Assembly: GCA_027491395.1 (NCBI GenBank)
Contig: JAOZFI010000006.1
Location: forward strand, 1-64,000
Length of the DNA stretch: 64,000 bases
From: Thermoproteota archaeon
GTDB lineage: Archaea > Korarchaeota > Korarchaeia > Korarchaeales > Korarchaeaceae
Direction: 5' to 3'
How positions within the stretch are numbered: position 1 is the stretch's first letter; each line of letters starts with the position of its first letter. The translations under genes were made by a program, and so were the position numbers. This document shows positions 876 to 15,561 of the stretch, piece after piece. The notes under the pieces were generated by a model. It was not told the origin of the DNA, did no database searches, and was given only the letters and a program-made list of their open reading frames with translations.

Positions 876-1187
876 GTGATCATATTGAAGATATATGGGA
901 TTGAAAGAGAGTTATTTGCACTTTCTCTCGCAATCCTGTTAATACTGCCGTTAGCAGCCAGTATACCAAACTCCATGGGTGTCTGGATAGGGACCTATGT
1001 AAGAACGTGGTCTATGAAGCGTGCTCACAGGATGGCTAGCTGGGCGCTTGATCAGATTACCGATCCCATCGGATGGGCAATAGGACACCATACTTGGTAC
1101 ACACGCCTCACATCTATTGCACTCATAGCTTATAGTGGCATTGGACCTTATTACGCGGCATTCACGATAGGATTCACTGTAGGGTGA
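876..1187 (+). CDS. Small hydrophobic peptide precursor (putative circular bacteriocin/archaeocin precursor); start may be TTG at 885
   Basis: 103 aa: charged N-terminus, hydrophobic leader, Trp/Gly/Ala-rich core, ends in Gly. First gene of a SpoIIM-Yip1-ABC operon. GGGTGAT SD overlaps the GTG at 876. Confidence 0.7.
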   Translation: MIILKIYGIERELFALSLAILLILPLAASIPNSMGVWIGTYVRTWSMKRAHRMASWALDQITDPIGWAIGHHTWYTRLTSIALIAYSGIGPYYAAFTIGFTVG

Positions 1188-1726
1188 CAGAAATTATTAG
1201 AACATTCTGTTTACCTGAGTTTTTTATTCTAATCATTTATCTATCATCGTTTGTTGTAGGTACATGGTACACCTTTAACGAAAACGGCGCTCGGGATGGA
1301 TCCTTCCATCTGAAGGATATTAAAAATATTAATATAAATTACCTTGATTTCATCAGGATGATATTGTTAAATAATTTAGTGGCAGGTATCTTAATCATTG
1401 TGGGAGGATGGTTGTTCTGCATACCGACTCTCTTAGTCCCCATAGCTTCGGGTTACTTTGCTGGGCTTTACTTTGGAGCCGCTTACAGAGCTTATGGACT
1501 CTTCATTTCCTTAATTTTGTATATCCCCATGCCCTTGGAGATAGCCGCCATAGTTATCCTAGGTCATGTATCCTTCAAGCTATGTAAGGAGAACCTCAGG
1601 AGATTAAGGGGAAACGACTCGGATGCTCCTTTGCTCAGAGGCCATATTAAATCTATCACATACGGTATTTTCCTCATAGTTGTAGGTGCTGTGATTGAGA
1701 CGATTATTCAATTCTACATCGGTTAA
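1184..1726 (+). CDS. Stage II sporulation protein M (SpoIIM/DUF95) family membrane protein
   Basis: ILLNN..., G.F.G, P.P.EI.A and C-terminal 'GAVIE' motifs typical of DUF95; GTGA overlap with the precursor gene. Confidence 0.8.
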   Translation: MTEIIRTFCLPEFFILIIYLSSFVVGTWYTFNENGARDGSFHLKDIKNININYLDFIRMILLNNLVAGILIIVGGWLFCIPTLLVPIASGYFAGLYFGAAYRAYGLFISLILYIPMPLEIAAIVILGHVSFKLCKENLRRLRGNDSDAPLLRGHIKSITYGIFLIVVGAVIETIIQFYIG

Positions 1727-1778
1727 ATTCATGAATGAGATCGCCAGGGGAGATTTATGAGGCTATTCTTTTTCCTTC

Positions 1779-2345
1779 ATGCTGGTGCTCCTCACGGGAA
1801 TCATGGTATACCTTTACTTCACTATGCCGTTCTTAAAGCCCAGTACCTCCACATACGCCGAAATGGATGTCCGCATTATAAGGGGATCTTTCCTACTTAC
1901 TCCGGTATTTTCCAGTCTCATAGTCGTCCTGATATGGGCTGTGGAATCTTCTTTAGCCTCGCTCGTCATCAGAAGATCGGTGAGAGGGGCGGAAAGGTCC
2001 CACATAAATTTAGGCGTTATAATGAGCGAATTTTCCTTGAGATACGTTCCTGAATTTATCTTCCTCCTCATAATAGTCCCGCTCGTATGGTTCAACCTCC
2101 CTGAATACACAGTGACCTCTGTGAAGGAGCTTATTAACGCATCTAAGAGCCTAGGAGAGTCTCCACTATACGTAAACGGGATGCTCGCTCTGATTGCTGT
2201 ATCCATATCTCGCTATCCCATATACGCAGCCATACTCAGATACAGATTGGATATAGGATGGAGGGAGACCCTCACTATCATCGCCCTGCTTATCATTGTT
2301 GATACACTCATAGCTTTGTGGGGAGGAGGGTTTCGGCTTAGGTAG
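1779..2345 (+). CDS. Multi-pass membrane protein, Yip1-like; original start may be 1731 with an in-frame TGA at 1758
   Basis: About 5 hydrophobic segments; sits between SpoIIM and the ABC ATPase. Confidence 0.55.
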   Translation: MLVLLTGIMVYLYFTMPFLKPSTSTYAEMDVRIIRGSFLLTPVFSSLIVVLIWAVESSLASLVIRRSVRGAERSHINLGVIMSEFSLRYVPEFIFLLIIVPLVWFNLPEYTVTSVKELINASKSLGESPLYVNGMLALIAVSISRYPIYAAILRYRLDIGWRETLTIIALLIIVDTLIALWGGGFRLR

Positions 2346-2360
2346 GGGGGTGAGTTAGGC

Positions 2361-13221: not shown

Positions 13222-13821
13222 TTAGGGATAGGGTGCGTTATTTTTTAATAATTGTTGGGCAGCAACCTTTGGATAATATATTCTCAGCACTATGTCTGTC
13301 AAAAGAAGCATGAGTATCATCGCTACACCGTCCTCCCTCTTCATCCCATATCTATGATTGAAAACGCGATAGAAGTAGATGAAGGATAGAGTCGAGAAGG
13401 AAGTATCGATTAGCGCCTTGATTGATGAGTATAGCTCGATACTAGATGCTCCTATAATGGGAAGAAGCACCAGATCCGTTATCAGTGATATAGACGAAAA
13501 GAGAAAGTAAAAAGACACAACACCCAGTATTGGGGAGAGTGGGCCCTTATACACGCTTCTATAAAACAAGAAGAGGTAAGTTAGTGCTCCCAGCAGGCCC
13601 CAGAGTAGGGCTCCGGTGAAGCTGCTTCCTAACAACACAAAATATGCGATAACATATGGGGGAATGGATTGATTGGCTACACCCAGCTCGTTCAGGACGA
13701 TCATTAGGTACAAGGATTGAGTACCCGTGTAGAGCAGGTATAGGAGAAGGGGCCTTCTCCTATTGGATGGAGGGTTATTGTTAAGCAGATCCGGATTTTC
13801 TTCTCTTCTACGTATGGCCAT
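13222..13821 (-). CDS. Multi-pass membrane protein (possibly Yip1-like), last gene of peptide cluster 2
   Basis: About 5 TM segments; overlaps the SpoIIM gene. Confidence 0.6.
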   Translation of the reverse strand: MAIRRREENPDLLNNNPPSNRRRPLLLYLLYTGTQSLYLMIVLNELGVANQSIPPYVIAYFVLLGSSFTGALLWGLLGALTYLFLFYRSVYKGPLSPILGVVSFYFLFSSISLITDLVLLPIIGASSIELYSSIKALIDTSFSTLSFIYFYRVFNHRYGMKREDGVAMILMLLLTDIVLRIYYPKVAAQQLLKNNAPYP

Positions 13822-14341
13822 TTAACTTCACCAAGATGCAAGGTATTGAGAGATAATATTCTATAACTGATGATGATATTATCATAATTAAACTTAATAA
13901 CGCTAATTTTGTTAAATAAACTAAATGATCTCTGGAGAGGTCGTAGGGATCCCCGCCATGGATTACCGTTACGGCGCTCGAAAGACCTACGGATGAGGAT
14001 ATGAGGATGGAGGTGATCTCCAGCGGCCCGTGGAATAGAAAGCAGGGGAGTGCACCTGTCAAGTTTTCTCTGAGAATTTCCCTAAAGATGCTACCTACCA
14101 CCATGCCGTTGAAGCTAAGGGAGAGAGCCGTGAGCGTTCCAAGTGTCACATACCCTATGGAAAGAATCAGGATAACGGAACTGTTCAAGAGGATAAGTCC
14201 GCGTAAATTATAATGTCCATTAAAGGGATGAGGAACAAAAACTCCACCTGACCCTTCCGTGTAAGATTGATCTGGGATCAGGAAGCTTCCTAAGATCCCG
14301 GCCGCATAGAAGAGCGATGCTAAGATCAGTCCCTCACTCAT
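13808..14341 (-). CDS. SpoIIM/DUF95 family membrane protein
   Basis: LILLN, FNGMVVG, HGPLEI and C-terminal 'SSVIE' motifs. Confidence 0.88.
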   Translation of the reverse strand: MSEGLILASLFYAAGILGSFLIPDQSYTEGSGGVFVPHPFNGHYNLRGLILLNSSVILILSIGYVTLGTLTALSLSFNGMVVGSIFREILRENLTGALPCFLFHGPLEITSILISSSVGLSSAVTVIHGGDPYDLSRDHLVYLTKLALLSLIMIISSSVIEYYLSIPCILVKLNGHT

Positions 14342-15305
14342 CCTCGGGCCTTGTTTCGTCCCTACCATGGCTCATCCTCCTGATGATCTCTATTCTCTTC
14401 TCCAAGCTAGGATGCGTTGGAAGTAGGGAGGGGGTTTCCTTCATTCCATATATTTTGATCAGAGCGTTTATCAGATCCTCTGGATTTGAGTAAGATGCTG
14501 CAATGAGATCGGCCTTCACCTCCCTCCTCCTTATCAGGATTAAGAAGACCGACAACGCTGCCAAGAAGCCAGTCACCACTAGCAGAAAGCTTACGGGATC
14601 GCGTGTCGTTACTGTCCCCGTTAAGGAGGAGAGTACTTCGCCTACAAGGAGTAGCATCGCGTACATCAGTAGTGTGTAGCCCAGATACCTGACGATGTCT
14701 CCTTCTTTATAATGGGCGAGCTCGTGGGCCAACACGCTCTTGATCTCTCCATTAGACAGCACCTTAAGCAGATCCTCATTTACGAAGACAGTTGGTTGAA
14801 TGATTCCCCCAAGAAGCGTAGTTTTCATTAGAGAGGATCTGAATAATCGGAGCCTTATATCCTTCCTGATCCCCATCTTTCCCTTAAGATCCTCGAAAAC
14901 CCTCTTCAGATCATCTGGGGGATCCTTTCCTTGACCAATCTTATCGAAAATTAAGGGAACCAGATTAACCGTGACGAACAGTACTACGAGAAAAGTGGAG
15001 AATTCGACTAGGATGCTGTGGCTGGGAAGTGAGGAGATTACAGCAGCATAGATGAAGATTAGATATAAATCGAAGTAATTGAGCAGGAGATCCTTGAATA
15101 ATCTCCTAGTTCCCGGGCTTTCCTTACTCAGAATAGAGTCCATAAGAGAGAGAATTATGGCAGTTAGTATCAAGATTACGAATCCAGTTATAAGAGGGTT
15201 AAGCCCATAATTAACCACGATGAATACACTAAGGGACATCATAGCTATGGCTATGAGAGCCATCACCAAGTTGTAAAGAGAAAAAAATGTAGGATTAGTT
15301 CTCAA
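14334..15305 (-). CDS. M48/HtpX-like membrane zinc metallopeptidase
   Basis: E.KSVLAHELAHY, RRREVKAD, THPSLEKRI motifs; 4 N-terminal TM segments. Confidence 0.9.
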   Translation of the reverse strand: MRTNPTFFSLYNLVMALIAIAMMSLSVFIVVNYGLNPLITGFVILILTAIILSLMDSILSKESPGTRRLFKDLLLNYFDLYLIFIYAAVISSLPSHSILVEFSTFLVVLFVTVNLVPLIFDKIGQGKDPPDDLKRVFEDLKGKMGIRKDIRLRLFRSSLMKTTLLGGIIQPTVFVNEDLLKVLSNGEIKSVLAHELAHYKEGDIVRYLGYTLLMYAMLLLVGEVLSSLTGTVTTRDPVSFLLVVTGFLAALSVFLILIRRREVKADLIAASYSNPEDLINALIKIYGMKETPSLLPTHPSLEKRIEIIRRMSHGRDETRPEDE

Positions 15306-15315
15306 TACAGATCCC

Positions 15316-15561
15316 TTACCCTATTAGGAAACTACCTACTGCTACAAGAGCGCCGGCTAAACCCGTAATTGGAGTACTGCATGCTGCTATTTTTGCTAGG
15401 GCTAAGAAGTACCCTCCTAGTGCCACTGCAGCTGCTCCATAATTACCTCTAGCAAGTAGATAGCCTACTCCCAACTGAGTTGCTGCAGGTGTTAATATAG
15501 GAAGTACCAATATTGCTATATTGAGGGCGAGAAGGGCTAGGGCTTTCTTTTCTGCCTCCAT
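15316..15561 (-). CDS. Small hydrophobic peptide precursor (putative circular bacteriocin/archaeocin precursor 2)
   Basis: 81 aa, Ala/Gly/Leu-rich, ends in Gly. SD GGGGTGAT and AT-rich TATA-like TTTTATAA upstream. First gene of the peptidase-SpoIIM operon. Confidence 0.75.
   Translation of the reverse strand: MEAEKKALALLALNIAILVLPILTPAATQLGVGYLLARGNYGAAAVALGGYFLALAKIAACSTPITGLAGALVAVGSFLIG

Follow-up and report, generated by a model that had tools for sequence, protein, structure and literature searches.

The first 64,000 nucleotides of contig JAOZFI010000006.1 from a Thermoproteota archaeon of the family Korarchaeaceae (assembly GCA_027491395.1), referred to here as the window, contain two small open reading frames (ORFs), ORF1 and ORF2, each of which encodes a short hydrophobic peptide and stands in a tightly packed operon with an accessory paralog of the SpoIIM (DUF95) membrane protein. 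The contig is archaeal, with the 3' end of a large subunit (LSU) rRNA, an RNase P RNA and six tRNA genes. The two gene clusters are about 9 kb apart within one island, in the genome of the window (G000) as well as in a related genome (G002); the other genomes compared are numbered likewise (G004, G020 etc.) and the loci fetched from them carry L-numbers. The GC content is 40-48% in the clusters and 52-59% in the flanks, so that the island is one of low GC, and the stretch between and around the clusters is crowded with toxin-antitoxin-type genes, including one for a Fic protein with a match to SoFic, a defence model of PADLOC. Table 1 lists the features. An earlier note on this DNA had quoted the N-terminal strings, the coordinates and the endings (IGFTVG and GSFLIG) of both peptides, all of which are correct, and its gene inventory is also borne out: an ATP-binding cassette (ABC) transporter and no recognisable protease in cluster 1, an M48 metallopeptidase and no ABC transporter in cluster 2, and a SpoIIM paralog in each.

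Table 1. Features of the window and small ORFs that flank extra SpoIIM paralogs in related genomes (aa, amino acid residues; E-values follow the family accession)
Feature	Position	Strand	Remarks
LSU rRNA, 3' end	1-681		
ORF1, small peptide gene	876-1187	+	103 aa from GTG start; no Pfam/NCBIfam family
Accessory SpoIIM/DUF95 paralog 1 (SpoIIM-1)	1184-1726	+	180 aa; PF01944, 1.6e-15; start overlaps ORF1 stop
Polytopic membrane protein, family not recognised	1779-2345	+	188 aa; no Pfam family; conserved partner 3' of SpoIIM-1
ABC transporter ATPase	2361-3008	+	PF00005, 2.2e-30; CcmA-like, TIGR01189, 136.5 bits
Putative ABC permease	2983-3726	+	247 aa, about 5 hydrophobic segments; no Pfam family
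Putative ABC permease	3704-4390	+	228 aa; no Pfam family; kept beside the 247-aa protein in G004
HEPN and nucleotidyltransferase (MNT) pair; HicA/HicB pair; second HicB with apparent short HicA remnant; VapB-like/DUF7557 gene; Fic	4795-5593; 7336-7663; 10920-11385; 8647-8862; 16290-17267		toxin-antitoxin-type genes
Cys-rich protein	5635-6549	-	304 aa; one N-terminal hydrophobic segment; no Pfam family
RNase P RNA	6646-6932		
tRNA-Met	8442-8517		
LAGLIDADG-like protein	8857-9957		366 aa; PF14528, 3.9e-15
Polytopic membrane protein, family not recognised	13222-13821	-	199 aa; no Pfam family; overlaps SpoIIM-2, conserved partner downstream
Accessory SpoIIM/DUF95 paralog 2 (SpoIIM-2)	13808-14368	-	186 aa; PF01944, 6.6e-12; overlaps M48 gene end
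M48 zinc metallopeptidase	14334-15305	-	323 aa; PF01435, 5.8e-22; HELAH motif present; N-terminal membrane segments
ORF2, small peptide gene	15316-15561	-	81 aa; ATG preceded by GGGGGTGAT; no Pfam/NCBIfam family
Flanking small ORF, G002			94 aa, ends ...L-I-G-I-A
Flanking small ORF, G002 and G020			86 aa, ends ...V-T-A-S-L
Flanking small ORF, G004			91 aa, ends ...A-A-V-W-L
Two paralogous small ORFs, second M48-SpoIIM cluster of G004, L042 (G004:C18)	2895-5551		113 aa each, 38% identical, end ...G-L-I

From the comparison of sequences we take both ORF1 and ORF2 as real genes, because homologues of the same length exist, because synonymous changes are in excess in ORF2 and because a 53% identical homologue of ORF1 in G004 begins with an ATG. 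Three relatives of ORF2 with identical length are present in the databases, at 93, 79 and 60% identity, and the gene is found in 2 of 41 related genomes. Compared with G002, its closest relative, ORF2 has 17 synonymous and 6 non-synonymous codon differences, against 36 and 34 in the adjacent M48 gene, which begins 10 bases after it. A Shine-Dalgarno-like word, G-G-G-G-G-T-G-A-T, is present a few bases 5' of the ORF2 ATG. ORF1 is carried by 3 of the 41 genomes, the copy in G002 (P0004) being 94% identical. The GTG of ORF1 sits inside a Shine-Dalgarno-like word, GGTGAT, and an in-frame TTG at 885 is an alternative start; the homologue in G004 (102 aa) has its ATG at the same place, seven codons further in than the listed start of ORF1, and the true N-terminus of ORF1 is therefore probably a little shorter than listed. 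ORF1 is absent as such from the gene calls, its sole database entry being an extended call of 151 aa. Both families are tiny: a wide search of 1.84 billion representative proteins with a profile of the ORF2 alignment returned two already-known relatives and nothing else, and a profile scan of the contigs returned the G002 locus only. The claim that both are genuine genes with a functional tie to the SpoIIM paralogs thus stands, by conservation and operon linkage.

The ORF1 copies of G000 and G002 differ by one synonymous and five non-synonymous codons, too few changes to interpret, and positive selection on ORF1 was rejected for this reason and for the mosaic divergence along the cluster. Between these two genomes a single difference is seen over the 744 nt of one permease gene (2983-3726), 5.7% in the next gene, and 8-10% in the M48 gene and ORF2. 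This mosaic suggests recombination within the island.

The two peptides share a general build. ORF1 has a signal-peptide-like N-terminus, a core rich in Trp, His and basic residues and an uncharged hydrophobic C-terminus that ends in FTIGFTVG; ORF2 has a signal-peptide-like N-terminus followed by a Gly/Ala-rich hydrophobic core ending in VGSFLIG. Only four products of up to 120 aa in G000 combine a hydrophobic N-terminus with an uncharged hydrophobic C-terminus, and two of them are ORF1 and ORF2 (genome-wide counts were taken on a crude set of 1880 ORF products of G000). Both N-termini consist of a charged start, a hydrophobic run of 16-20 residues, a Pro and then small residues at -3/-1. P25 in the ORF1 family and P21 and P25 in the ORF2 family are invariant and are followed a few residues later by a small-residue site, which is [A/V/G]-A-S just before a conserved S-M-x-V-W block in the ORF1 family (...L-P-L-[A/V]-A-S, ...F-G-A-S) and P-x-x-x-P-[A/V/T]-x-T, with an invariant T28, in the ORF2 family. 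By eye, the alignments of both families show the charged n-region, the h-region, the helix breaker and the small -3/-1 residues of a Sec-type signal peptide. Such small-residue sites are acceptable to signal peptidase I under the -3/-1 rule of von Heijne.

A specific leader motif common to both peptides, AIL-x(1-2)-LP, had been proposed in the earlier note and is not upheld. BLASTP of the ORF1 peptide against the ORF2 peptide gives no match at E <= 1. The motif, which was written from these two peptides themselves, occurs four times in the 1880 products, twice within the first 40 residues (the ORFs behind the four matches are not listed), and a relaxed form is found in 30 of 294 proteins with hydrophobic N-terminus. 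The exact motif is absent from the orthologues, which read LILLLLLP in the G004 member of the ORF1 family and AILVIP and LILAVP in the ORF2 family. In the ORF1 family 9 of 25 leader positions are identical, compared with 11 of 15 at the beginning of the core, 22 of 46 in its middle and 8 of 10 at its end; ORF2 and its 79% relative are identical at 16 of 28 leader positions and 48 of 53 core positions. Since the leader is less conserved than the core within each family, the leaders, as far as these alignments go, behave like signal peptides and not like a conserved recognition sequence, and the likeness between the two is generic.

The C-terminal Gly, seen in the same note as the residue of ligation, is invariant in each family (3 of 3 ORF1-family and 4 of 4 ORF2-family sequences); 221 of the 1880 products also end in Gly. 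The spacing differs by one residue between the endings G-F-T-V-G of ORF1 and G-S-F-L-I-G of ORF2. The more telling trait is that both peptides are hydrophobic and uncharged up to the stop codon. The other SpoIIM-linked peptides described below end in A, L or I in the same genus and in L, A, Y, G or V in Thermococci, so that the Gly is not supported as a general ligation residue.

SpoIIM matches are found in 32 of the 36 genomes of the family, three of them in G000. The third match of G000 is the housekeeping copy, a 459-aa RDD-SpoIIM fusion encoded at another locus without a small ORF beside it, which is present in nearly all relatives. Extra short paralogs are seen only in G000 (2), G002 (4), G004 (5) and G020, G047 and G049 (1 each), with two fragments in G024; accessory paralogs are 14-43% identical to SpoIIM-1. 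A tblastn search of plasmids with SpoIIM-1 gave no match at E <= 0.01. The small ORFs beside the extra paralogs of the genus show no sequence relationship and yet have the same build, with a hydrophobic N-terminus and an uncharged hydrophobic C-terminus, and no Pfam family was found for the 94-, 86-, 91- and 113-aa products (Table 1). The paired 113-aa proteins of L042 are possibly the products of duplicated precursor genes; this locus also holds a 97-aa ORF. The polytopic proteins encoded after SpoIIM are of three kinds; each is conserved among modules of its own type and is unlike those of the other types. Homologues of the 188-aa protein of cluster 1 (33% identity, E 4.8e-20) and of the 199-aa protein of cluster 2 (56% identity, E 3.5e-53) are encoded at the equivalent positions in G004. 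The 247-aa permease is present in 5 of 43 genomes of the phylum, one copy having an internal stop.

The accessory and the housekeeping copies of SpoIIM in archaea (the latter corresponding to arCOG01994) and SpoIIM of Bacillus subtilis belong to the same family, PF01944, and the motifs P-H-G-x-x-E and I-E-x-x-I-T are common to accessory and housekeeping copies; the housekeeping copy differs in its RDD fusion and in having no small peptide gene beside it. All accessory SpoIIMs, in an alignment of 12 paralogs, and the RDD-SpoIIM (L001:700-2079) keep P-H-G-x-x-E and a Glu in the last membrane segment, the invariant residues being G74, E119 and E172 in SpoIIM-1 numbering. Judged from this alignment, conserved polar residues inside the membrane might indicate catalysis by SpoIIM rather than scaffolding.

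It had further been suggested that the two clusters are complementary, cluster 2 lending its protease and cluster 1 its exporter. The sister modules give a different picture. Neither an ABC transporter nor an M48 gene is present in the stretches examined of the G002 and G020 modules (L039, L040 and L046), and the ABC genes adjoining one G004 module are of an importer-type system (PF00528). M48 homologues occur in 5 of the 43 genomes of the phylum and adjoin SpoIIM in G000, G002 and G004 (two copies), with no adjacent SpoIIM in G008 and G020. All three genomes with ORF1 and cluster 1 (G000, G002 and G004) also carry an M48-SpoIIM cluster; they are relatives and hence not independent cases. As neither the ABC transporter nor M48 is universal among the modules, complementation between the clusters is possible but unnecessary, and nothing points to it. 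We regard the clusters as independent modules of one cassette type and not as halves of one pathway.

In the current analysis comparable modules have also been identified in Thermococcus and Pyrococcus. A profile of the 12 accessory SpoIIM paralogs, run on this phylum (that of G037), finds SpoIIM in 129 of 133 genomes, up to six times in some, and the best-scoring matches are extra copies, often arranged in arrays. The extra copies are preceded by peptides of 73-110 aa, all of which begin with M-W-R-K-A-L-A-L-G-L-V-L-M-A-I-G-V-V-V-G-G or a close variant. A strict pattern finds 19 such peptides in 30 loci, and the addition of four enlarged islands brings the number to 25 distinct peptides. A SpoIIM ORF lies within 2 kb downstream on the same strand in 18 of the 25 cases, the other seven being, to judge by their positions, mostly truncated copies or peptides at locus ends. 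None of the peptides belongs to a Pfam or NCBIfam family. A protein collection holds 42 relatives from Thermococcus, mostly called hypothetical and two of them named 'Pilin' by UniRef; several of the carriers are named species. Among 21 peptides of at least 70 aa, 17 lack a charged residue in the last 12 positions, and the last residue is L (9), A (8), Y (2), G (1) or V (1). Single-copy SpoIIM loci (L074, L077, L078, L079, L082, L084 and L086) have a different conserved context and no such peptides. In the phylum of G034, SpoIIM is found in 40 of 121 genomes and always as a single copy, so that it offers no accessory modules for comparison.

Over 16 of the Thermococcus and Pyrococcus modules (120 pairs) the mean identity is 79.6% in the 22-residue leader, 58.3% in SpoIIM and 31.0% in the core. 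The identities of core and SpoIIM are weakly correlated (Mantel r 0.27, reached by 17 of 5000 permutations, with relatedness among the 16 modules uncontrolled). SpoIIM as a core-specific immunity protein was rejected, since this correlation is weak and since SpoIIMs 82% identical accompany unrelated cores. In G172 a single 10-kb island contains five modules, between which stand HEPN-MNT pairs and AAA/DUF4143 genes but no ABC transporter (L087, G172:C47:224000-241000, positions 3140-12771); one of its SpoIIM genes appears to be cut short at a HEPN-MNT pair. No ABC or M48 gene is found in the two islands inspected of the four enlarged ones. In L069 a Yip1-domain gene follows SpoIIM.

Like the modules of the window, those of Thermococci consist of a small peptide followed by none to three small polytopic proteins and a SpoIIM paralog, with HEPN-MNT pairs nearby. 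The build of the peptide is also common to both lineages: a basic start, a hydrophobic run, a short polar linker, an aromatic or basic stretch and an uncharged, Gly/Ala-rich hydrophobic tail. They differ in that a near-identical leader precedes unrelated cores in Thermococci, whereas each family has its own leader in the genus of the window. A leader motif spanning both phyla, as the K-A-L-A-L similarity might suggest, was rejected: a profile of 19 Thermococci leaders, run against all 19,998 frames of G000, places that of ORF2 65th (2.3 bits, E 170) and that of ORF1 1008th. Because this profile does not single out the ORFs of the window, the likeness between the lineages is one of architecture and not of sequence. 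What survives of the archaeal peptide family proposed in the earlier note is this wider set of SpoIIM-linked small peptides with variable cores; the common rule of cleavage and ligation and the sharing of machinery in trans do not.

Cassettes of a similar kind have been described from archaea. Makarova et al. (2014; PMC4158269) report cassettes of arCOG01996, a paralog of DUF95/COG1300, with several variable membrane proteins in archaeal dark-matter islands and interpret them as novel defence systems associated with the membrane. A role in membrane remodelling or vesicle formation has been proposed for arCOG01994 and its paralogs, including the arCOG01996 cassettes (Makarova et al. 2015; PMC5898192). 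The cassettes listed in these papers come from Archaeoglobi, Methanococci and Thermococci/Pyrococci. As here, they are described as a non-housekeeping DUF95/COG1300 paralog in a group of 3-4 genes with small, highly diverged membrane proteins, sometimes Yip1-like, with ABC transporters nearby, and as patchy in occurrence and found in variable islands (PMC4158269, PMC5898192). The description fits the paralogs of the window, which are distinct from the housekeeping copy and accompanied by small diverged membrane proteins. The Thermococcus and Pyrococcus modules are probably arCOG01996 cassettes themselves, and the lineage of the window belongs, in the taxonomy used here, to another phylum than those listed in the reports. 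The passages of 2014 and 2015 consulted on these cassettes contain no link to circular bacteriocins, no conserved leader with variable core and no M48 partner.

The bacterial counterparts are the clusters for bacteriocins cyclized head to tail, which comprise a precursor, a transporter, SpoIIM (formerly DUF95), an immunity protein and hydrophobic proteins of unknown role (PMC8659200, PMC8534725, PMC13289728). A cluster is called in the same three papers when a precursor, SpoIIM/DUF95 and a transporter or ATP-binding protein occur together. SpoIIM/DUF95 is present in both clusters of the window, and cluster 1 contains all three elements, with its PF00005 protein and two permease-like proteins. 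The clusters of the enterocin AS-48, circularin A, carnocyclin A and gassericin A types resemble the present ones in a small precursor that is extended at the N-terminus and, at the proposed cleavage sites, would have a hydrophobic or cationic core of comparable size, in the SpoIIM/DUF95 hallmark with further hydrophobic proteins of unknown role and, for cluster 1, in the ABC ATPase and permeases. The precursors of 103 and 81 aa are below the usual limit of about 110 aa, and the cores would be about 71 and 53 aa at the cleavage sites proposed here, compared with about 58-70 aa. Within the ORF1 family the core is best conserved at its two ends; circular bacteriocins, too, are reported to have conserved termini (PMC7132975). 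An M48 (two cases) or M50 peptidase is encoded in a small number of bacterial clusters (PMC8659200, PMC8534725), a Yip1-family protein is also encoded in the cerecyclin cluster (PMC8534725), and the leader protease and the cyclase of circular bacteriocins are described as unknown in bacteria (PMC8534725, PMC8659200, PMC10028692).

Sec-dependent linear class II bacteriocins offer a second parallel, with a leader of the signal-peptide type, a small hydrophobic or cationic peptide and small membrane immunity proteins. Their leaders have small residues at -3/-1, so that a dedicated leader protease is not needed. To our knowledge, the clusters of these linear bacteriocins carry no SpoIIM.

Our tentative preference, held at somewhat less than even confidence, is that ORF1 and ORF2 encode the precursors of small, exported, membrane-active peptides of bacteriocin-like nature, each in an accessory SpoIIM (DUF95) cassette of its own. 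The tight operons with a SpoIIM paralog, the conservation of the peptides, the patchy and multi-copy distribution, the low-GC island and the architecture of the peptides lead us to this view. The cassette would be an archaeal form, equipped with M48 or an ABC transporter, of the DUF95 cassette that makes circular bacteriocins in bacteria and has been seen and left unexplained in archaea. The N-terminal 28-32 residues would form a leader resembling a signal peptide, by which the precursor reaches the membrane, and may be cut off at the conserved small-residue site; this is [A/V/G]-A-S before S-M-x-V-W in ORF1 and its relatives, and in the ORF2 family it is [A/V/T]-x-T, at residue 28. Cleavage could be the work of signal peptidase or, for cluster 2, of the neighbouring M48 protein as a dedicated leader peptidase. 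The SpoIIM paralog and the polytopic protein that always follows it would deal with the hydrophobic core by releasing or exporting it, perhaps by ligating it head to tail, and/or by protecting the producer. In cluster 1 the ABC system would contribute export or immunity, and the small polytopic proteins may also confer immunity.

That the core is closed head to tail we consider unlikely. Closure is favoured by the presence of SpoIIM as hallmark, by core ends that are conserved and by a C-terminus without charge, and disfavoured by the lack of a family match, the uninformative models and the terminal Gly. It is just as doubtful that archaea make circular peptide toxins, 'circular archaeocins', by minimal cassettes of precursor, small immunity proteins and SpoIIM, in which SpoIIM, with its invariant His/Glu motifs embedded in the membrane, would serve as a leader-dependent machine for maturation and cyclization and the M48 protein of cluster 2 as an optional leader peptidase. 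This idea is drawn from the modules themselves, most of which have no ATPase or protease, and from Thermococci, where a near-identical leader and a well-conserved SpoIIM go with unrelated cores. For circularin A, shortening of the leader to just one Met is possible, and hydrophobic residues are required at the termini, with an aromatic one at the C-terminus (PMC10028692).

Several observations weigh against the bacteriocin-like reading. An ATP-binding protein, which published definitions demand, is missing from cluster 2 and from most of the other modules. Neither peptide matches the circular-bacteriocin families (PF09221, PF12173, PF16942 and TIGR03651) or any other Pfam or NCBIfam model at E <= 0.1, and a sequence search of the PDB with both alignments gives no match at E <= 10. 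The AlphaFold2 (AF2) models are of low confidence, with a predicted local distance difference test score (pLDDT) of 72.2 for ORF2, in three long helices, and 59.8 for ORF1; they show long helices and no compact bundle, such as the one of 4-5 helices that characterises circular bacteriocins and has the ligation site within a helix, and Foldseek finds no match in the PDB at E <= 0.001. Among the five sets nearest to ORF2 in a protein language model are three circular-bacteriocin families, at scores of 0.85-0.86 that lie below the 0.9 mark and are a lead only, and the best score for ORF1, 0.75, gives nothing usable. In subgroup I circular bacteriocins the C-terminal residue is described as hydrophobic or aromatic (PMC10028692), unlike the Gly seen here. 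Within both families the leaders change more quickly than the cores, as ordinary signal peptides do, and the island with its HEPN-MNT, HicAB and Fic genes suits defence or addiction modules equally well. Among the sequencing runs listed for this sequence are three DNA runs, with small shares, and no RNA run. A complex prediction of SpoIIM-2 with ORF2, run without controls, scored 0.00 and is evidence neither way.

The host is a further difference from the bacterial systems, as two in-silico surveys of circular bacteriocins report them from Firmicutes, Actinobacteria and Thermotogae only, and the word 'archaea' is absent from their text (PMC8534725, PMC7132975). No archaeal circular bacteriocin was found by the literature searches, which included term searches within the main texts of PMC8534725, PMC7132975, PMC8659200 and PMC10105419. 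The reduced archaeal cassettes, with a peptide, small membrane proteins, SpoIIM and in some cases M48, would be a simple system in which SpoIIM could be tested as a machine that cuts leaders and closes rings. We know of no circular bacteriocin from archaea, and of few archaeal peptide toxins of any kind. Should the peptides instead be components of defence or of structures, they would still provide the accessory DUF95 paralogs, left unexplained in 2014-2015, with a partner linked by function.

Such a role in defence is the first alternative to be considered. The cassettes would then be membrane-associated defence or addiction modules, whose peptides act on the own cell as membrane toxins or sensors, for example in abortive infection, and are restrained by SpoIIM and the other membrane proteins, with no export against competitors. 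We hold this to be rather unlikely, even though it agrees with the reading of DUF95/arCOG01996 clusters by Makarova et al. (2014; PMC4158269). The window island, with its HEPN-MNT and HicAB genes, VapB-like gene and SoFic-matching Fic, the Thermococcus array interleaved with HEPN-MNT pairs, the patchy distribution and the low GC are all in keeping with it. On the other hand, the PADLOC models give no match to SpoIIM, M48 or the peptides, and among the cassette proteins only a generic similarity of ATPases. The signal-like N-termini with conserved small residues at -3/-1 and the ABC exporter point to export, and the gene content parallels that of bacteriocin clusters.

The small ORFs could also encode ordinary small subunits or substrates of SpoIIM complexes that remodel membranes or form vesicles, and play no part in conflict, as would follow from the proposal for arCOG01994 and its paralogs (Makarova et al. 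2015; PMC5898192). The Yip1-domain gene after SpoIIM in L069 would suit such a role, and SpoIIM of B. subtilis is a scaffold (PMC5898192), whose sporulation partners SpoIID and SpoIIP are absent from archaea according to the same paper. This explanation we find doubtful: occurrence in only some genomes of a genus, copy numbers of up to six and arrays in which unrelated cores keep their leaders fit housekeeping poorly, and a separate conserved SpoIIM in another context is already present in nearly all relatives.

A maturation rule shared by the two peptides, by which both would be cut behind the LP region and ligated at the C-terminal Gly, together with complementation in trans by the cluster 2 protease and the cluster 1 exporter, appears improbable. 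The joint presence of cluster 1 and an M48-SpoIIM cluster in G000, G002 and G004, the short distance between the clusters within one island of G000 and of G002, the invariant terminal Gly of both families and a Pro 4-8 residues ahead of the likely cleavage point in both would agree with it. Those three co-occurrences come from related genomes, however, and the peptides show no similarity by BLASTP, do not keep the motif in their orthologues and have leaders that diverge faster than cores; other modules of the genus do without ABC or M48 in the stretch examined, with peptides ending in A, L or I, and M48 homologues stand without adjacent SpoIIM in G008 and G020.

Only a very small chance is given to the peptides being type IV pilin-like, in which case a prepilin peptidase would trim a few charged N-terminal residues and the hydrophobic helix would be retained in a subunit of a surface filament or of the membrane. 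Archaeal class III signal peptides are known to have a [K/R]-[G/A] cleavage site directly before the hydrophobic run. The start of ORF2 (...E-K-K-A-L-A-L-L...) and that of the Thermococci peptides (M-W-R-K-A-L-A-L...) have a basic residue, Ala and a long hydrophobic run, two of the 42 Thermococcus relatives bear the name of pilin, and a conserved N-terminal helix with variable remainder is also pilin-like. Against this, K-A precedes the hydrophobic run in ORF2 and no such site is present in ORF1 or the other peptides of the genus, which falls short of a class III signal; the cassettes contain no gene for a pilus ATPase, platform or peptidase, and the remainder, Gly/Ala-rich and hydrophobic to the last residue, is unlike the soluble head of a pilin. 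That one or both small ORFs are chance open frames in the intergenic leaders of the SpoIIM/M48 operons is scarcely credible, in spite of the single synonymous change against five non-synonymous ones in ORF1 and its lack of an ATG and of a regular gene call, given the 17 to 6 codon ratio, the Shine-Dalgarno-like word and the four same-length members down to 60% identity for ORF2 and the G004 homologue of ORF1, equal in length, with its ATG at the same place.

Some further features were noticed in the loci. In G012 (L123, G012:C13:21427-22164) a 51% identical copy of the cluster 1 permease has an internal TGA, and no ORF1 homologue or accessory SpoIIM was found in that genome; the copy looks like a decayed remnant of a cluster-1-type cassette. 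In another genus of the family, L047 (G047:C21, 3833-4904) encodes an accessory SpoIIM of 177 aa directly followed by a homologue of CPBP/Rce1-like intramembrane proteases (PF02517, 2.2e-10), a family often tied to bacteriocin immunity in bacteria. The gene for the Cys-rich protein of the window has the HEPN-MNT pair on one side and the gene for RNase P RNA on the other. The LAGLIDADG-like protein is encoded just 3' of tRNA-Met and is free-standing, with no enclosing intron or intein visible; in G002 its frame is broken into pieces of 240 and 127 aa.

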